Below are positions 1-50,458 of a DNA stretch of 64,000 bases, piece by piece. Source of the DNA: Stegostoma tigrinum (Eukaryota); assembly GCF_030684315.1 (NCBI RefSeq), contig NC_081358.1, forward strand, positions 87,694,458-87,758,457, written 5' to 3'. Under the pieces are notes generated by a model. The model was not told the origin of the DNA. It did not search any database and was given only the letters and a program-made list of their open reading frames with translations. Positions within the stretch are counted from its first letter, which is position 1. Each line of letters begins with the position of its first letter. A program made the translations under genes and the position numbers.

Positions 1-411
1 GCTAATATCATCAGGAATATGAGGAACAGGATTTTCTATGAGGATATTGCCACCTTCAGTAGTTTTACTTCCACCATTGGACACAGGCTTAAAACTCATC
101 AACCCCGATAATGGCCAGCACTATTTCCCCCATAGGGTTTAGGATATGTAAATACATGTGTATATATCTACTAGCTTCCACTGTCTTCAATCATGAATCA
201 TTTTATCTTGCAGAGAAGGGGGATGCATTTCTTGGCATCGTGCAAACTGTTTGGGTGATGTTTGTGATGATTGACCTTGTGACAGTATTTCCAGACTGTA
301 AGATGCGAGTGTGAAACACTGCAGTAGTGCTAAGCGTGTCAGGACATGGTGGAGCTAGAAAAATTGTTTCTAACCTCCAATTTACAGAGATGGTTGGCAG
401 CGTAACGAGTC

Positions 412-11859: not shown

Positions 11860-13403
11860 CAGAGATAATGGGAACTGCAGATGTTGGAGAATCTGAGATA
11901 ATGAAGTGTGGAGCTGGATGAACACAACAGGCCAAACAGCATCTTAGGAGCACAAAAGCTGGCGTTTCAGGCCTAGACCCTTCATCAGAAAAGGGGGATG
12001 AGGAGAGGGTTCTGAAATAAATACGGAGAGAGGGAGAGGCAGACTGAAGATGGATAGAGGAGAAGATAGGTGTAGAGGAGAGTATGGGTGGGGAGGTGGG
12101 GAGGGGATAGGTTAGACCAGGGAGGAAGGACAGTCAAGGGGGTGAGATGAGGTTAGTAGGTAGGAAATGGAGGTGCAGCTTGAGGTGGGAGGTGGGGATA
12201 GGTGAGAGGAAGAACAGGATAGGCATGCGGGGATGAGCTGGGCTGGTTTTGGGATGCCGTGGGGCATTTCACTCCCCCACATCCCAGATGTCCTCGTTCT
12301 TCAAGGGACGCAACATCCTCCCCACAGGGGTTGAGTATGCCCTCGACTGTGTCTCCTGCATTTCCCGCACCTCATCCCTCACACCCTGCCCTCACAATAA
12401 CCGCCTAAAAAGAATCCCCCTCGTCCTCACATACCACCCCACCAACGTCCGGATACAATGCATCATCCTACGACACTTCTGCCATCTACAATCCCACCCC
12501 ACCAACAAAGACATTTTTCCCACCCCACCCTTGTCTACCTTCCGGAGAGATCACTCTCTCCATGACTCCCTTGTCCTCTCCACACTCCCCTCCAACCTCA
12601 CCACACCTGACACTTTTCCCTGCAACTACAGGAAGTTCTACACCTACCCCCACACCTCCTCCCTCACTCCCATCCCAGGCCCCAAAAAGACTTTCCACAT
12701 CAAGCAGATGTTTATCTGCACATCCGCCAATGTGGTATACTGCGTCCGCTGTACCTGGTGTTGCTTCCTCTACATTGGGGTAACCAAGCGGAGGCTTGGG
12801 GGCCGCTTTGCAGAACACCTCCACTTGGTTCGCAATAAACAACTGCACCTCCCAGCCACGAACCATTTTAACTCTCCCTCCCACTCCTCAGACGACATGT
12901 CCATCCTGGGCCTCCTGCAGTGCCATAATGATGCCGTCCATAGATTGCAGGAATTGCAACTCATATTCCGCTTGCGAACCCTGCAGCCCAATGGTATCAA
13001 TGTGGATTTCACCAGCTTCAAAATCTTCCCTCCCCCCACTGCATCCCAAAACCAGCCCAGCTCATCCCCACCTGCCTAACCTGTTCTTCGTCTCAACTAT
13101 ACCCTCCTCCCACCCCAAGCCGCACCTCCATTTCCTACCTACTAACCTCATCCTACCCCCTTGACCTGTCCCTCCTTCCCGGACTGACCTATCCCCTCCC
13201 TACCTCCCCACCTATACTCTCCTCTGCACCTATCTTCTCCTCTATCCATCTTCAGTCCGCCTTGCCCTCTCTCCCTATTTATTTCAGAATCCTCTCCCCA
13301 TCCCCCGTTTCTGATGAAGGATCTAGGCCTGAAACATCAGCTTTTGTGCTCCTGAGATGCTGCTTGGCCTGCTGTGTTCATCCAGCCCCACACTTTGTTA
13401 TTA
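11860..13403 (+). mobile_element. Neptune-type PLE with inverted 5' pLTR (minus arm ~11860-12260, plus body ~12261-13403)
   Basis: The body encodes the thumb/linker and GIY-YIG (VVYCVRC...LYIGVTKRRLGGRFAEH). Hammerhead variants at 11961-11988 (-) and 13311-13338 (+). TSD TGGTTGAATGG at 11849-11859 and 13404-13414. Confidence 0.93.
12261..13079 (+). pseudogene. 5'-truncated PLE ORF: RT thumb/linker + GIY-YIG endonuclease
   Basis: ORF 12249..13079. The Cys knuckle is degenerate (CNYRKFYTY versus CNRRKCYTC in younger copies). Confidence 0.88.
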
Positions 13404-32585: not shown

Positions 32586-32822
32586 GACAACCAAGTGTAA
32601 AGCTAGATGAACACAGCAGACCAAGCAGCATCCCAAGAGCACAAAAGCTGACGTTTCGGGCCTAGACCCTTCATCAGATTAGATGAAGGGTCTCTCTGAT
32701 GAAGGGTCTAGGCCTGAAACATCAGTTTTTGTGCTCCTGGGATGCTGCTTGGCCTGCTGTGTTCATCCACCTTCACACTTTGTTATCTTGGATTCTCCAG
32801 CATCTGCAGTTCCCATTATCTC
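32586..32822. mobile_element. Palindromic PLE pLTR mini-element with two divergent hammerheads
   Basis: Intact core at 32650-32677 (-) and a variant at 32696-32723 (+), 18 nt apart. Perfect TSD TGTATTTGAACTGC at 32572-32585 and 32823-32836. Confidence 0.92.
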
Positions 32823-33283
32823 TGTATTTGAACTGCATTGTGTAAGCCTAACTTATATTTTGGATGTGGGACAGATTATACAATGTTGACAGAATGACTG
32901 CAGAGGTAATGGATCTGTTGGTGGTCATCCTCCAAAATTCTTCAGATTCTAAAATGATTTCTACAGATTGGAAAGTAGGAAATATAATCCCTTCTTGTTA
33001 AGAAAAGAAGGAGAGAGTAAACGAGGAATTACGGTCCTGATAACCTGATGTCAATCATGGGGAAAATGCTAAAAACAATTCCAAAAATATGATAACTGGA
33101 CTCTTCAAAATTTGTGATGGGATTGGGAAGAGTCAACATAGACATGACAAGGAAATCAACCTTTTGAAAAACCTGTTAGAGTTTTATGTTAAAGGACATA
33201 ACTAGCAGAATAGATCAAGAGATCATCTGATCTCGGATCACATCACTAATCTTGTGTCATGATCCAAGATGTGATCACCAAAA

Positions 33284-34506: not shown

Positions 34507-34710
34507 AGAGAACAATAGCTTGCTTAGCTCAAATTAAACATGTGTAAACGGAGGGTACAAGAAGGTGTGTTAGAATTTCACAAGCGTTTCAGAAGGTTTC
34601 CAAATGGAGTCCCACACAGGTAAGCAAAACTAAAGCAAATGGGATTGGAGATAACTTCCTGGCACGCACTGAGAATTAGTTCATGGAAAAGAAACAGAGT
34701 AGGAACAAGT

Positions 34711-35932
34711 TAATAAAATGTGAGGCTGGATGAACACAGCAGGCCAAGCAGCATCTCAGGAGCACAAAAGCTGACGTTTCGGGCCTAGACCCTTCATCAG
34801 AGAGGGGGATGGGGTGAGGGAACTGGAATAAATAGGGAGAGAGGGGGAGGCGGACCGAAGATGGAGAGTAAAGAAGATAGGTGGAGAGAGTATAGGTGGG
34901 GAGGTAGGGAGGGGATAGGTCAGTCCAGGGAAGACAGACAGGTCAAGGAGGTGGGATGAGGTTAGTAGGTAGCTGGGGGTGCGGCTTGGGGTGGGAGGAA
35001 GGGATGGGTGAGAGGAAGAACCGGTTAGGGAGGCAGAGACAGGTTGGACTGGTTTTGGGATGCAGTGGGTGGGGGGGAAGAGCTGGGCTGGTTGTGTGGT
35101 GCAGTGGGGGGAGGGGACGAACTGGGCTGGTTGAGGGATGCAGTAGGGGAAGGGGAGATTTTGAAACTGGTGAAGTCCACATTGATACCATTGGGCTGCA
35201 GGGTTCCCAGGCGGAATATGAGTTGCTGTTCCTGCAACCTTCGGGTGGCATCATTGTGGCACTGCAGGAGGCCCATGATGGACATGTCATCTAGAGAATG
35301 GGAGGGGGAGTGGAAATGGTTTGCGACTGGGAGGTGCAGTTGTTTGTTGCGAACTGAGCGGAGGTGTTCTGCAAAGCGGTCCCCAAGCCTCTGCTTGGTT
35401 TCCCCAATGTAGAGGAAGCCACACCGGGTACAGTGGATGCAGTATACCACATTGGCAGATGTGCAGGTGAACCTCTGCTTAATGTGGAATGTCATCTTGG
35501 GGCCTGGGATAGGGGTGAGGGAGGAGGTGTGGGGACAAGTGTAGCATTTCCTGCGGTTGCAGGGGAAGGTGCCGGGTGTGGTGGGGTTGGAGGGCAGAGT
35601 GGAGCGAACAAGGGAGCCACGGAGAGAGTGGTCTCTCCGGAAAGCAGACAGGGGAGGGGCTGGAAAAATGTCTTGGGTGGTGGGGTCGGATTGTAAATGG
35701 CGGAAGTGTCGGAGGATGATGCGTTGTATCCGGAGGTTGGTGGGGTGGTGTGTGAGAACGAGGGGGATCATCTTAGGGCGGTTGTGGCGGGGGCGGGGTG
35801 TGAGGGATGTGTTGCGGGAAATACGGGAGACGCGGTCAAGGGCGTTCTCGAACACTGTGGGGGGAAAGTTGCGGTCCTTAAAGAACTTGGACATCTGCGA
35901 TGTGCGTGAGTGGAATGTCTTATCGTGGGAGC
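34711..35932 (-). mobile_element. Young 5'-truncated Neptune-type PLE nested in CR1
   Basis: Intact hammerhead at 34773-34800 (-). TSD AGGAACAAGT at 34701-34710 and 35933-35942. Confidence 0.95.
35025..35932 (-). pseudogene. Uninterrupted C-terminal ~300 aa of PLE ORF: thumb, CxxxxCxxC knuckle, GIY-YIG endonuclease, Pro/Ser tail
   Basis: PGTFPCNRRKCYTCPH...NVVYCIHCTRCGFLYIGETKQRLGDRFAEH...RRLQEQQLIFRLGTLQPNGIN. The RT catalytic core is absent (5' truncation), and the ORF-track start lies in flanking DNA. Confidence 0.92.
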
Positions 35933-38900
35933 AGGAACAAGTAGTCATTCTCAAGCTGTGACTAGTTTCCTTAAAATATTTCATTTAACTTGGGTGTCAC
36001 TGATAAGGCTAGCATTTGTTGCCCAGTCACAAATGCTCTTGAACTGAGATCGCTAGCTGCCAAAAGTGCCATGAGCATCAGGGCTTGGATCCAGCTGTTC
36101 ACAATCTGTATCACTACTTTGAATGTGTGGATCAACTGTAATACTTCCAGTTTTGCTAATGACACAAAACTAGTTGGAAGTGTGAGTTGTGAGGAGGTTG
36201 CAAAGATGGTTCAGTGGATCATGTTAGCTCTTATTGCAAGAGTATTTGAGTACAGAAATAGTGATGTCTTGTTGAAATTGCACCTAGAGTATTGCGTGCA
36301 GATGCTTTATCTAAGGACGGATACATTAGCTATCGAAGAATATTGACCAGACTGATTCCTGGAATGGTAGGATTGACACAGGGGAAGACAATGAGGGGTT
36401 TGAATCTATATTCTCCGGAAGGATGAGAGCTGATCTTATTGAAACGTGCAAAATTCTTATAGAAATCAACAGGGTAGATGCAGGTATAAGTTTACCATGG
36501 AAACCAGGATGCCTGGAACAAAGAGAAGCGTTGTCAGAATGAGAAGTAGTTAGTTTACGACTGAAATAAAGAGGTATTTCTTCACTCAGTGGGTAGTGAA
36601 TCTTTAGAATTCTCTAGGGGGTTGTGGACGCTCCATCCTTGAGTGTTTTCAGGACGCAGTTTGTTAGATACTAGATTTTAAAAATTCTAAGGATATTAAA
36701 AATATTATTGTGTAGTGCTAAAATGGCAATGTGGTAGAAGATCATCTATGATCTAATTTAGTGGCAGTACAGAGTCAAGATCCAAAACAATAACTCTGAT
36801 TTCTCTCTACAGAAGCGACCAGACCTGCTGAGTTTTAGCAGCAATTTCTGTGTTTGTTTATGGTTTGTTTTACTTGCCCTATGTCCAATGTAATTTTTAG
36901 ATGGAATCAGAAAATACTGTGCAAATTTGAGGGCCTACTTCTCAAATTTGACTGGGAATTTATATATATTTCTATTATGTCTCAAGTACAGCTAATAATC
37001 AAACATACAAACAAAACCTACACTTTAGTATTTTTGAAATAAATGATTTGGTTTCTTTCTTAGCTACCTCCTGCAGCTATCAGCAAAGCAATTTGTCGAT
37101 AGTAATCCCACCCGCTAGTATCATATCAAAGAAAATCAGGCAAACTGTAGCAGGAACTATTGTATATTAAAATAACCTGACTGCTTTCTGCTTTTAATGG
37201 TGTACGCAGCTTCTCAGAAATATATAAACCATAAGAGAATGAAGCATACACAATAAAGTCTTCAGTTTTTTTATCACAGCACACAACATGTACTCATCAT
37301 TATTTTACCCAGCTATTTCACCTTCTGTGCTGCTGCCTTATTCCAAAATCTTCTGAATGAAGGGTTTTTTTTGACAAAAGGTCAAATAAAGTTGAAATAA
37401 TTTATTTTCCAACTGGGTATTAGGCATTTTTTTTATCATCCCATTGATGCTGCGTGTAGAAAATGTATGCTGTAGGTCTTTTTTTCTCTTCTAACATGCA
37501 AATGACTCACCAGTGGAAGGATTAAGTGTGGTATCTTGCTGATGTGTAAACTGCTTGGGAATGAGATGCCTCCATAATCCTTTAAGCAGTTCCTCAGATG
37601 CCCTTCAACTACTTCCTTTAGTTGGGGACATATTTCTGATTATCTACATCCATTTCTGTGCACAGGGAATAAAACCTGAAAGTGCAGTAGAAACTCAACA
37701 GGTGCGGCAGCACCTGTACAGAGAGAATCACAGGCTGAATATTGCATTAATGTCAACCATGTCATGATTAAGGGGGAGTTTCTATCTATAAGGCCTAGCA
37801 AGTTTTCTCATCACATCTTACTAATCATTAACTAAATATCCTGCGTCTGCCCCTTGTCCGATTTCGGCTCAGTTCTGCCACTTGCCACACCTGCAATGGA
37901 CTGGTCTCCAGCTGAAGCACTATTATTATCATTATTGTCTGCAATATCTCCTCTCACTTATTCACCATCCCAATTTCTCCACTCTGCATGTCATCTGTGC
38001 TGCCACTCACTTGCTCAGATCGCCAGCCTACCTTCACCAAAAGTGATAGCTATGCTACCCAGCCTGGTCAGCTGATCACTGTGGCCATCTAACATCCGTG
38101 ATTTTTGCTTTTAAAAACCATATTAGGCCATGAATAGTCATAGGTATTAAAAATCAGATGATGAAATTGGAAAATTGATGGCTCATTTTTTAGTATTATT
38201 GTAACAATGGTCATTGCCTGATATATGTGTGAATACAATTACACATTCATCAGCCCAAGGCGGGGAGGAGGTGTCATCCATGCCTTGCTATATCTGGATA
38301 CAGTTTGCTTCAGTGACTGAAGAATCCGAAATGGTGCTGAACATTGTGCTATTATCAGCAAAAATCCTCCCTCCTGACCTTATGATAGTAGTTCCCTGCG
38401 TTGAAGTGTCTATAATTCTGCGAGGCGTTCTGCTGTTGGTCAGACCTTTGAGAAGGCACAGTGTGTGTTAATTTCATTTTAATTGTGTTTAATTATGGTG
38501 GACTTTAACTGGGTGTTCATTTGAGTTTTTAAAAAAAATTTAACCTATTTTTCTAATTATTCAGAGAGGTTATCACACACCTTGTGGAGCAGCTGGGATT
38601 GAACCGAGAACTCGTGCTGTAGGGTGAGGACGCAACCAATGCATCACAAGAGGGCCTTTGAGCTTCTTACAAATAAATATAAACTGAAACTGTGGATGTT
38701 GGATTTGGAGGGGTTTTTTTATTTCTTAATATATAGAGCTACATAAAGATTGGCTCCTGTTTTATCCTTTGACAACTGGTTTTCAGGGGTAGAGCAGCAC
38801 GTTCCAAGCCATCAGAGTGACAGAGGCAGCATTTCAAAATAGCTACCTTATCATAGTCACATACAGTTGGAAGAAACTTTTAATTCCATTTTATTGTCCT

Positions 38901-39800: not shown

Positions 39801-41214
39801 AAGGTATGGTTGAGTAAGAAGGGGGCATAGTCTAAAAATTAGGGCTAGACCATTTAGGAGAGATGTTAGGAAGCTCTTCTACATGCAAACAGCACTTGCT
39901 GATTGATCCTTTAAGTTTGAATCTGAGGTAGATAAACATTTCTTAAGCAAGGGTATTAAATGGATTATGGGCCAAAGGAAGTTTCATGGATCACAGTTGA
40001 TGTTGAGTAACCCTTGCTCAGAACCATTTTAACCACAATGAGCTTAAATCTCTGAATCAGTGGTCAATGATTCACCAGAAGGCTCTAATTTAAATGTTTT
40101 CAGACCCCTGGCACTATATCACTTGAAGTAGTGACTGTCATTGCTCAGTGGGTGACCGTTTCTTTAGACACACAAATGCATGGTGCTCTCCAGTGAGGAT
40201 TGTGTTATCACTTAGTTTGCATGTAAGACCTATGAGCTACTTTGCCTCTTTATGTTAAAATAAATCCAGTTGAATAATGGTGCTATTTAATTATCGTTGT
40301 TCACTGTAAAGATCCCAGTTTTACAGTTCCAAAGTGAAGCACAGCTGAGAATCAGTTTTCTGTTGGAACCTTTTGGAATGCCTTTAGTACATTCACTATC
40401 TCCAATGCTTCTTGCTGTTCTCAGTCTAAGTCTACTTACACCATGATGGGAAGGATGCTTTTGTGAACTCTTTAGCAGAAGAAAGGCTTGAGATTGATGG
40501 ATGGTAAATAGTTTTAAGACATACCACATTGTAGCAAGTTGCAGTACATCTGAGATGCATGCTTTTCTGTTGTGAGACTTTTCGGCTTAAACCAGGATGA
40601 ACTACTTTAACTATATTCTGTTAAGACTAAGTACAATCACTGCAGAGCTGTACACCCTCAGTGGAGCACATGCAGGATTCTGGGTAGCTCCTCCCAGGAA
40701 CAGTCTTTTATATCCTGCTGCTTGGAACTTATCTTGCGATGTCATTTACACCTTTCAGGTGCTAACTGCCTTATGCAACATCTCTCCCAAGCTTTCTTTC
40801 CAGTTCTTAATGAATTGTTTCAAACAATTAAAGTAGGTTTATCATACCCTGAATTGTTCAAGTCTCTGACTTTGTAAACGACCACTGACCTGGTTTGATT
40901 GCAAGTTTGCTGCTTGAGGACAAACCTTACAGGTACAGCTTGTTGCCATCCTGGAACTTTGGTGAATCTCTGATTTCTTGGATGTTCTTTACAGAGGATG
41001 GCCCTTGCTGCCAATGTCACTACTTAATATTTGTCTCCCTTGGAGGATCTTAAGTTCCCTTCAGTTGTGTCAGAGAAGATTATTGCCTTTCTGAAAGAAG
41101 TTATCTTTCACTCTTGGAGATTGTAACAAGGTATAGTCACACGTGATATTTCCGTTACTGCTCCTACACATTTGCAAAACATCGTAACTTCATCAGACTC
41201 AATTATAGACAGAA

Positions 41215-41882
41215 TGGCCAAGCAGCATCTCAGGAGCACAAAAGCTGACGTTTCGGGCCTAGACCCTTCATCAGAGAGGGGGATGGGGAGAGGGTTCTGG
41301 AATAAATAGGGAGAGACGGGGAGGAGGATGGAAGACGGAGAGAAAATAAGATAGTTGGAGAGGAGAGATAGCAATTTCTCGCCATCCCCCTCTCTGATGA
41401 AGGGTCTAGGACCGAAACGTCAGCTTTTGTGCTCCTGAGATGCTGCTTGGCCTGCTGTGTTCGTCCAGCTCCACACTTTGTTATCTTGGATTCTCCAGCA
41501 TCTGCAGTTCCCATTATCACTGATACAATTTTAACCTCACTGTGAAGCCTCTTCCAGGGATGCCTAACCTGAAGAAGTTACCCTCTTCCCTCCGAACCAA
41601 CCTCAGGGAATCTGTCTCCCACTGCAACTCTCTTGTAATCTCTTCAGCCTTGAAACTGCTATCTCTCGTCTCCACCTATCTTCTTTTCTCTCCATCTTTG
41701 GTTCGCCTCCCCGTCTCTCCCTATTTATTCCAGAACCCTCTCCCCATCCCCCTCTCTGATGAAGGGTCTAGGCCCGAAACGTCAGCTTTTGTGCTCCTGA
41801 GATGCTGCTTGGCCTGCTGTGTTCATCCAGCTCCACACTTTGTTATCTTGGATTCTCCAGCATCTGCAGTTCCCATTATCGC
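41215..41882. mobile_element. Composite PLE insertion: inverted pLTR + pLTR + putative ORF 5' end + second pLTR
   Basis: Hammerheads at 41247-41274 (-), 41394-41421 (+) and 41756-41783 (+). TSD TATAGACAGAA at 41204-41214 and 41883-41893. Confidence 0.92.
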
Positions 41883-42220
41883 TATAGACAGAAAGCTGAT
41901 TTAGCTGTTTTGGTACTGCTTCTTAACAGCTGAATCAACCAGAACAAGAACCTGCCTCTAACTTCTGGTGTTTGCAGTGTCAAGGAGATCAGATAATCAG
42001 ATTTTGATGATTTTACTTGTTATCTGGTGGACACTGAAGCGACCTTGCAGTGTAATATTTTGTATTATTTCTAGCTCTTTCAAGCTTTTAGGAGCAAGCT
42101 TAGTTTTGCTGTTGGTTTTGCTATCTTTTTATCTGTTGGTTGCCTCATTCTCAGAGACTAGTTCGCGCTGAGTGTTCTTAAACTGCCGAATATTTAAAAA
42201 TACATTTAATTTTCTGACTG

Positions 42221-44209
42221 TAAAATGTGAGGCTGGATGAACACAGCAGGCCCAGCAGCATCTCAGGAGCACAAAAGCTGACGTTTCGGGCCTAGACCCT
42301 TCATCAGAGAGGGGGATGGGGAGAGGGTTCTGGAATAAATAGGGAGAGAGGGGGAGGCGGACCGAAGATGGAGAGAAAAGAAGATAGGTGGAGAGAGTAT
42401 AGGTGGGGAGGTAGGGAGGGGATAGGTCAGTCCAGGGAAGACGGACAGGTCAAGGGGTGGGATGAGGTTAGTAGGTAGGAGATGGAGGTGCGGCTTGGGG
42501 TGGGAGGAAGGGATGGGTGAGAGGAAGAACAGGTTAGGGAGGCAGAGACAGGTTGGACTGGTTTTGGGATGCAGTGGGTGGAGGGGAAGAGCTGGGCTGA
42601 CTGTGCGGTGCAGTGGGGGGAGGGGACGAACTGGACTGGTTTTGGGATGCGGTGGGAGAAGGGGAGATTTTGAAGCTGGTGAAGTCCACATTGATACCAT
42701 TGGGCTGTAGGGTCCCCAGCGGTATATGAGTTGCTGTTCCTGCAACCTTCGGGTGGCATCATTGTGGCACTGCAGGAGGCCCATGATGGACATGTCATCT
42801 AGAGAATGGGAGGGGGAGTGGAAATGGTTTGCGGCTGGGAGGTGCAGTTGTTTATTGTGAACCGAGCGGAGGTGTTCTGCAAAGCGGTCCCCAAGCCTCC
42901 GCTTGGTTTCCCCAATGTAGAGGAAGCCACACCGGGTACAGTGGATGCAGTATACTGCATTGGCAGATGTGCAGGTGAACCTCTGCTTAATGTGGAATAT
43001 CATCTTGGGGCCTAGGATAGGGGCGAGGGAGGAGGTGTGGGGGCAATGTAGCATTTCCTGCGGTTGCAGGGGAAGGTGCCTGGTGTGGTGGGGTTGGAGG
43101 GCAGTGTGGAGCGAACAAGGGAGTCATGGAGAGAGTGGTCTCTCCGGAAAGCAGACAGGGGTGGGGATGGAAAAATGTCTTGGGTGGTGGGGTCGGATTG
43201 TAGATGGCGGAAGTGTCGGAAGATGATGAGTTGTATCTGGAGGTTGGTGGGGTGGTGTGTGAGAACGAGGGGGATCCTCTTTGGGCGGTTGTGGCGGGGG
43301 CGGGATGTGAGGGATGTGTTGCAGGAAATGCGGGAGACGTGGTCAAGGGTGTTCTCGATCACTGTGGGGGGAAAGTTGCGTTCCTTGAAGAACTTGGACA
43401 TCTGGGATGTTCGGGAGTGGAATGCCTCATCGTGGGAGCAGATGCGGCGGAGGCGGAGGAATTGGGAATGGGGGATGGAATTTTTGCAGGAGGGTGGGGA
43501 CCACTTTGCAGAACACCTCAGCTCGGTTCACAATAAACAACTGCACCTCCCAGTCGCAAACCATTTCCACTCCCCCTCCCATTCTTTAGATGACATGTCC
43601 ATCATGGGCCTCCTGCAGTGCCGCAATGATGCCACCCGTAGGTTGCAGGAACAGCAACTCATATTCCGCCTGGGAACCCTACAGCCTAATTGTATCAATG
43701 TGGACTTCACCAGCTTCAAAATCTCCCCTTCCCCCACCGCATCCCAAAACCAGCCCAGTTCGTCCCCTCCCCCCACTGCACCACACAGCCAGCCCAGCTC
43801 TTCCCCTCCACCCACTGTATCCCAAAACCAGTCCAACCTGTCTCTGCCTCCCTAACCTGTTCTTCCTCTCACACATCCCTTCCTCCCACCCCAAGCCACA
43901 CCTCCATCTCCTACCTACTAAACTCATCCCACCTCCTTGACCTGTCCGTCTTCCCTGGACTGACCTATCCCCTCCCTACCTCCCCACCTATACTCTCTCC
44001 ACCTATCTTCTTTTCTCTCCATCTTTGGTCCGCCTCCCCCTCTCTCCCTATTTATTCCAGAACCCTCACCCCATCCCCCTCTCTGATGAAGGGTTGAGGC
44101 CCGAAACGTCAGCTTTTGTGCTCCTGTGATTCTGCTGGGCCTGCTGTGTTCATCCAGCCTCACATTTTATTATCTTGGATTCTCCAGCATCTGCAGTTCC
44201 CATTATCAC
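42221..44209. mobile_element. Large inverted PLE insertion (minus arm ~42221-43494, plus arm ~43495-44209)
   Basis: Both arms encode the GIY-YIG C-terminus. Hammerheads at 42280-42307 (-) and 44083-44110 (+). TSD TAATTTTCTGACTG at 42207-42220 and 44210-44223. Confidence 0.95.
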
Positions 44210-44699
44210 TAATTTTCTGACTGGATTTCTTTCTTTCTTCACTTTGGTTGACTGTGGCCCTTGTAGAATTGATGACATTTTTGGGATAGCATAGCTATCA
44301 TAGAATGTTAGAATTGTTTACAAAACAATGTGGTGTCTATCATCTTGTATAGCACAGTAAAATGAAATCTTTGGATACCCACTGCTGTTACCATCTTGCA
44401 CTGAATTTGGCTAAGTGTCATTTTTGGGGAATTTCATGGAGAATTTCACTCTATGACCTTTACCCAGTTTTCTCACATTACCCTCTGTGTCTTGCCTCAT
44501 TACCTCAGCATTGTGCTGTAATTGTGCACCACTCATGATATTATGTGCTCACCAGTGTTAGAAATACTTGCCACTGCCAGGATCTCCCTGTGCTGGCACT
44601 ACAACTAAAATAGTAGATTGCTATAGGTCAAATGCTATTTGTCAGGGATGCCCTCACATGTATGTGTGGAGAAATACCCCAGAGATGTCTGAGAAAGGG

Positions 44700-50327: not shown

Positions 50328-50458
50328 AGAGATATTGGGAACTACAGATGCTAGAGAATCCAAGAATACAAAGTGTGGAGCTGGATGAACACAGCAGGTC
50401 AAGCAGCATCTTAGGAGCACAAGAGCTGGATGTTTGGGCCTAAACCCTTCATCAGAAA
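50328..50458 (-). mobile_element. Solo PLE pLTR truncated just upstream of the hammerhead
   Basis: TSD TTCATGTG(T/C)GAAG at 50315-50327 and 50461-50473. Confidence 0.85.

Follow-up and report, generated by a model that had tools for sequence, protein, structure and literature searches.

The window analysed here, a 64,000-nt stretch of Stegostoma tigrinum DNA, contains at positions 41215-41882 an insertion with three hammerhead ribozyme cores, two of them in tandem on the plus strand. The question is whether this locus could release a 362-nt RNA in the manner of a retrozyme, as a first-pass annotation had suggested, or whether its layout has another origin. We find that the locus is a shortened, partial-tandem and inverted copy of a Penelope-like element (PLE), ordinary on its own, and one of at least 100 shortened PLE copies in the genome. 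As a retrozyme it is likely inert.

Positions with a plus or minus sign are counted from the predicted hammerhead cut (GUC followed by AG), +1 being 41422 or 41784. The features of the locus are as follows.

41204..41214, plus strand: left TSD, 11 bp
41216..41378, minus strand: inverted arm, with about 9 nt of 5′ body, the joint, the 3′ region -126..-1 including the hammerhead, and the tail to +31
41247..41274, minus strand: minimal hammerhead core of the inverted arm, predicted minus-strand cut after 41247
41377..41421, plus strand: start of the direct arm, 5′-truncated (about -45..-1), with the first core (41394-41421) inside
41422..41521, plus strand: first pass across PLE +1..+100, tail region, haplotype A
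41522..41660, plus strand: PLE 5′ body +101..+239, leader and ORF codons 1-33 (ATG at 41560, MPNLKKL...SALKLL)
41659..41661, plus strand: joint of +239 and -126 with a 2-nt CT microhomology, about 3.2 kb of the parent skipped
41661..41783, plus strand: PLE 3′ region -126..-1, second core inside (41756-41783), family sequence intact
41784..41882, plus strand: terminal tail +1..+99/100, corresponding to the long reverse-transcription start site (PMC11167929, accessible text)
41883..41893, plus strand: right TSD, 11 bp

This anatomy bears out the earlier description of a TSD-bounded insertion with one inverted and two plus-strand pLTRs. The 11-bp TSD TATAGACAGAA flanks 41215-41882 on both sides, the inverted arm has 94% complementarity to 41652-41814, and the tandem pLTRs are recovered as 145-nt direct repeats (41377-41521 and 41739-41883) with 97% identity and a spacing of 362 nt. 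The three annotated cores, CUGAUGA...GAAACGUC, are present at 41394 (+), 41756 (+) and 41274 (-), and the GUC cuts predicted on the plus strand fall after 41421 and 41783, again 362 nt apart. In detail, the direct arm runs from about -45 to +239 and is fused there to -126..+100. The inverted arm also has the joint, with the same private 1-nt loss as the direct arm, and its tail end at +31 is atypically short for the family. All 10 mismatches between the arms lie within the 54 nt nearest the joint (41325-41378 versus 41652-41705) and the other 110 nt are identical; this uneven distribution possibly reflects partial gene conversion. The 137-nt segment between the plus-strand pLTRs had been described as found nowhere else in the window, and this holds apart from a partial 16-nt overlap with one other copy; in the genome the segment is not unique.

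The middle segment is the parent PLE's own 5′ leader and the first 33 codons of its ORF, and in longer genomic copies it continues into that ORF. A 134-nt query from the segment gave 2048 first-look candidates in the genome, with at least 41 matches among the 40 scored, and an 18-nt anchor taken from it has 606 exact genome matches. The parent monomer, present whole at L108, measures 3564 nt from core to core; the locus is this parent with everything between +239 and -126 missing. The ORFs of L110 and L111 carry DKG and YIDD motifs, which we take to mark a reverse transcriptase (RT). The assignment rests on these motifs, because a Pfam search with the two RT-region proteins gave no match. A GIY-YIG domain at the C-terminal end of the ORF in a copy within the window has an E-value of 6e-4, which falls just short of Pfam's cut-off. 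The linker that joins RT to EN, CX4CX2C (CNRRKCYTC), falls within the CX2-5CxxC definition that marks Neptune and Nematis PLEs (PMC8557442, accessible text). The following traits of EN+ PLEs are represented: a single ORF with RT and GIY-YIG, pLTRs with a hammerhead, an inverted 5′ copy, a tail and a TSD. On these sequence features, the parent is a Neptune-like EN+ Penelope-like element, with a linker motif that fits Neptune and Nematis alike.

Several other observations concern the same family. A second two-armed copy of this PLE lies beside the locus (42222-44211; minus arm of 1.3 kb, plus arm of 0.7 kb, the one tail short and the other long), and further truncated copies occur in the window near 12237-13401 and 34706-35984. 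Window 41715-41734 is a pyrimidine tract with CAG at its end; it lies 22 nt upstream of the core and looks like a splice acceptor. The introns of the D. virilis PLE end near the hammerhead. Minisatellites with units of 46 and 50 nt (L122:1118-1710 and L050:25-219) derive from the PLE tail (about +18..+73). Beside one PLE copy, a 490-aa open frame (L109:926-2395, plus strand) encodes another reverse transcriptase, presumably CR1-like from its motifs.

The cores agree with the annotated minimal PLE hammerhead, having no loop 3, a palindromic ACGU helix III and a bulged A before a 4-bp helix II. A search of the locus against Rfam returned no hammerhead family and only chance miRNA matches, as expected for hammerheads of this minimal kind. 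The exact 30-nt motif occurs 90,316 times in the 3.2-Gb genome. Among the features of minimal type I hammerheads, we identified the CUGANGA core, GAAA, GUH, helix II and the palindromic helix III; a helix I of 4-5 bp was not found. Helix I has 2 bp only; in 63 of 85 cores a U-C mismatch occupies its third position. Position N7 is variable (T in 56 and A in 27 of the 85), with U-G/U-A exchange at 10.4-11.4. Core conservation in this set (n=85) is inflated, because the set was gathered by a core-like pattern. The first core of the locus has a private C-to-A change at 41411 in stem II, which creates the sole G-A at that pair (1/85 cores). The minimal PLE hammerheads in the accessible text of Cervera and de la Pena (2014, PMC4209133) likewise lack loop 3, have a palindromic 15.2-16.2 and a bulged base before G10.1-C11.1, and need a dimer, the dimers cleaving weakly in vitro. 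Their helix I has 4-5 bp, whereas that described here has 2 bp, as in D. virilis, and helix II here has 4 bp.

We asked whether the locus itself could act in this way. The catalytic bases are intact in both plus-strand cores, which might share one helix III. In a read-through transcript, the second core is predicted to pair with the inverted arm at probability 1.0, within a 163-bp duplex. A fold constrained to the double hammerhead lies 28 kcal/mol above the minimum, in an energy that excludes core and tertiary terms, and the structure of a 362-nt circular monomer is not unusual (z +0.8). The mutation in the first stem II and the predicted sequestration of the second core by the inverted arm disfavour release of a 362-nt RNA from this locus.

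Loci of this layout are common. The first 30 of the 606 anchor matches listed form an unbiased set of 27 independent places on one contig; tandem cores less than 1 kb apart (333-597 nt) occur at 6 of the 27, and 3 of the 27 have a third, inverted core too. Scaled to 606 matches, this small sample corresponds to roughly at least 120 tandem-core and at least 60 three-core loci, which are lower bounds because exact anchors alone count. In another set of 96 places, selected for holding PLE 5′ body, unit lengths are about 260-1630 at 79 places, with at most about 2.5 units per arm. Near the position of the locus joint we found 43 matches, with many different breakpoints. Certain joints recur at more than one locus: two other loci share the breakpoint of this one but have different subfamily backgrounds and haplotypes. 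A genome search for other copies of the 362-nt unit, which the first-pass annotation had proposed as a check, detected the private joint (1 mismatch allowed) only in the two arms of the locus. The diversity of joints and the absence of the private joint elsewhere lead us to reject a clonal retrozyme family. A distance test for clonal descent (p 0.56) is without power, because the arms of one insertion are as divergent as unrelated loci. In its layout the locus is seed-like, a short non-coding tandem-hammerhead unit (1.4 units, two cores, one damaged stem II), but it lacks the amplification that makes a family: neither an amplified family nor arrays of one unit were found in the genome. On their 3′ side, the joints concentrate around +239, +256 and +265. 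This suggests that RNA 3′ ends are preferred shortly beyond an ORF part to which the protein may bind.

How such copies are made can be read from their arms. In a random sample (48 stretches of 10 kb at arbitrary places plus the window, 544 kb in total), 146 of 166 PLE segments end in the tail. Among these 146 arms, 84 end at +60..69 and 40 at +85..104, and 121 continue over the scissile bond, most templates having been intact there. Of 57 head-to-head pairs, 49 combine a short tail with a long one, in agreement with the pair of internal start sites reported for another PLE (accessible text of PMC11167929). Within the 96 places, both arms have the same joint in 20 of the 22 insertions where both cross one. 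Where it could be scored, the tail haplotype agrees between the two passes of an arm in 27 of 30 cases (13 others unscorable) and between the two arms in 29 of 33 (21 others unscorable), with 0.41 expected by chance in each comparison. Several joints carry a non-templated A or oligo(A), as expected of real RNA 3′ ends, and in 10 of 27 one-joint insertions the partner arm halts within 15 nt of the joint. From the shared joint, the shared haplotype and the two start sites (about +65 and +100), we infer that both target strands were likely primed on one RNA. As the joint is shared by the arms, the ends of the template RNA likely correspond to the joint and not to the ribozyme site. There are counter-cases: the partner arm runs far past the joint without a jump at L009 and L095 (2/27), unit length is unequal in 2 of 22 pairs and two tail haplotypes occur in 3 of 30 arms, which means that two templates served for some insertions. 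The arms could also have become alike through gene conversion. Splicing was considered as the source of the joint and rejected, as inspection revealed no AG acceptor before -126.

We consider it probable that a shortened Neptune-like PLE inserted here in one event, with one short RNA (-126 to +239), read as a loop, as its template. The template would be a short RNA extending from -126 over an intact hammerhead to +239. The PLE protein would nick both target strands, and each nick would prime internally, at +100 for the direct arm and at +31 for the inverted arm, where the usual site is +65. Having reached the RNA 5′ end at -126, each enzyme would continue from the 3′ end at +239, either because it jumped from one end of the template to the other or because the template was a covalent circle closed at that point, and the two cDNAs would finally be joined head to head. 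The template jump on linear RNA and the circle closed at the joint are equally compatible with the data. The 362-nt spacing is then the length of the template RNA, and therefore no ribozyme cut is needed. Copying of the insertion, and not ribozyme processing, probably explains the 362-nt period; the unit shows no clonal spread, and three-hammerhead loci with other unit lengths are common.

The family hammerhead nevertheless appears to leave a trace. Whole-genome counts of copies in which the three bases immediately upstream are mismatched give 3043 at +1, versus 449 at -1, 394 at +2 and 472 at +3. Among the first 100 of the 3043 matches at +1 listed, 63 start with AAA and are mostly head-to-head palindromes, and 10 represent another microhomology join; without the AAA and microhomology joins, the +1 excess is about twofold. 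Perfect head-to-head palindromes on AGCT (+1..+4) number 771, compared with 55, 154 and 25 at three neighbouring 4-nt palindromes, the outcome predicted if both cDNAs run off a 5′ end at +1 and then anneal. Among 12 joints from the 5′ body to the hammerhead region, six are at +1 (five independent, one ambiguous by 2 nt), six at -27..-33 and none between, and two more joints to 41784 were found in DNA contigs. All four sequencing runs compared with 41522-42200 consist of contigs, three of them tentatively RNA from another organism, and their content is family sequence that carries no information on ends, strand or level. The 544-kb random sample shows no pile at +1 (3 of 146 arms at -1..+1); the pile is visible in whole-genome counts only. 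Stalling at the base of a competing CUGAUG/CGUCAG hairpin was rejected as its source, since the counts for +3 (472) and +2 (394) show no increase. Alternatively, the joining step may prefer certain sequences. Going by these copy ends, the +1 pile-up is likely the footprint of family hammerhead cleavage in vivo, and the hammerhead likely cuts a few percent of templates.

Two further observations concern ends near the core. A second preferred 5′ end, at about -27..-33, falls where the hammerhead core begins and is seen in 38 of 146 arms (for example 32586-32826 and 50328-50456); at ≥88% identity, 12 of 61 arms end at -34..-27, and about half of the joints near the core are also at -27..-33. This end could be a transcription start, and a cap-G signature at the -27 ends is not distinguishable from head-to-head microhomology. 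Tandem mini-units starting exactly at +1, one of them 189 nt long, occur at G000:C1:92082840-92083080 and C1:81931884-81931973, and may be loops closed at the predicted cut end.

These results bear on the reading of the locus as a true retrozyme, in which a parent with two hammerheads would be cut as a dimer, ligated into a 362-nt circle and copied by 1.4 rounds of reverse transcription, and the locus could repeat the cycle. The two cores with intact catalytic bases 362 nt apart, the likely cleavage footprint of the family and the loci with three joints over two arms (L038, L053, L104, L116 and L127), which fit circles, are consistent with it, as is the average consensus length of chondrichthyan retrozymes, 363 bp (preprint 10.64898/2026.07.22.740005, accessible text). 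We nevertheless regard it as unlikely. The genome search recovered neither a sister nor a daughter copy, haplotypes differ at the two loci that share its breakpoint, and hundreds of parent loci would be needed to supply the diversity of joints. Moreover, arms often halt at the joint, unlike the prediction for a seamless circle, and the mutated stem II, the pairing of the second core, the energy of the double-hammerhead fold and the unremarkable circle given above all count against it.

An origin at the DNA level is quite unlikely. Here a microhomology deletion would have removed the middle of a full-length insertion, and fold-back or gene conversion would later have made or homogenised the inverted arm. 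The 2-nt microhomology at the joint fits this, and so does the inverted arm, which at this locus is nested in the direct arm and identical to the direct copy over about 110 nt. At many other loci, however, arms that share one joint are non-nested (e.g., L014, L045, L048 and L112), and simple fold-back is therefore excluded; oligo(A) at joints and identical joints repeated in tandem units are also not expected from independent deletions. Very unlikely is a jump between two RNAs, with one truncated RNA finished at -126 and a second RNA ending at +239: discordant haplotypes in 3 of 30 arms and two partners that pass the joint position would suit it, but at this locus the two passes, 98% identical, both belong to haplotype A, and the joint recurs in the inverted arm.

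Copying of one short, looped RNA is thus the account we retain for the locus. More tentatively, the genome may be a fossil record of the PLE cycle, in which a dimeric enzyme primes both target strands at two internal start sites of one RNA and loops from its 5′ end to its 3′ end, germ-line cleavage is performed by a hammerhead that lacks loop 3 and has a helix I of 2 bp, and such loci seed animal retrozymes. If true, pLTRs, inverted arms and retrozyme-sized units would arise afresh with each insertion, and thousands of copies would start exactly at the scissile bond. This PLE family bears on the origin of the tandem and inverted layout and on cutting by minimal hammerheads in vivo. Both signals, arm-shared joints and the +1 pile of ends, can be tested at low cost in any genome rich in PLEs. 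A literature search restricted to papers available without subscription found no report of either arm-shared joints or copy ends piled at the cut site.

Among known systems, the closest are insertions of the EN+ PLEs Neptune and Nematis, as described in the accessible text of Craig et al. (2021, PMC8557442). They share a pLTR derived from a more-than-unit copy, an adjacent inverted 5′-truncated copy, a 30-40-bp tail at one end, a hammerhead in the pLTR and the CX2-5CxxC linker. In contrast to these, the unit here is reduced to 362 nt and the arms share template features; the origin of the inverted and tandem layout was called undefined in that text.

The Poseidon PLE of Anolis carolinensis, PAc, offers a biochemical counterpart (Frangieh et al., 2024, PMC11167929, accessible text). 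Its protein nicks and extends both strands, initiates reverse transcription at two internal sites that delimit the tail, and mainly uses RNA that is uncleaved. The PAc protein depends on the ORF region's first 172 nt, which the short units here retain. The PAc ORF begins within the hammerhead, whereas the open frame here begins 138 nt past the cut. Its authors found no PAc reads that start or end at the cut site; in the family described here, by contrast, genomic copies have their ends piled at that position. The anole ribozyme requires its protein (PMC11167929), and for Xenopus, 1 of 9 dimers cleaved (accessible text of 10.64898/2026.07.22.740005).

Animal non-LTR retrozymes have already been derived from PLE pLTRs (Li et al., 2026, 10.64898/2026.07.22.740005, accessible text), and the supplementary tables of that preprint may list units of the kind described here. 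Like the locus, metazoan non-LTR retrozymes have a non-coding unit of 150-450 nt, one type I hammerhead per unit and a large TSD (accessible texts of Cervera and de la Pena, 2020, PMC7229834, and Li et al., 2026), and their mean length in the sole chondrichthyan sampled by Li et al. is near the 362 nt found here. Unlike these retrozymes, the locus has 1.4 units, a minimal and not a canonical hammerhead, and no clonal family. The shared joints and the +1 pile offer a route from PLE to retrozyme without DNA deletion.
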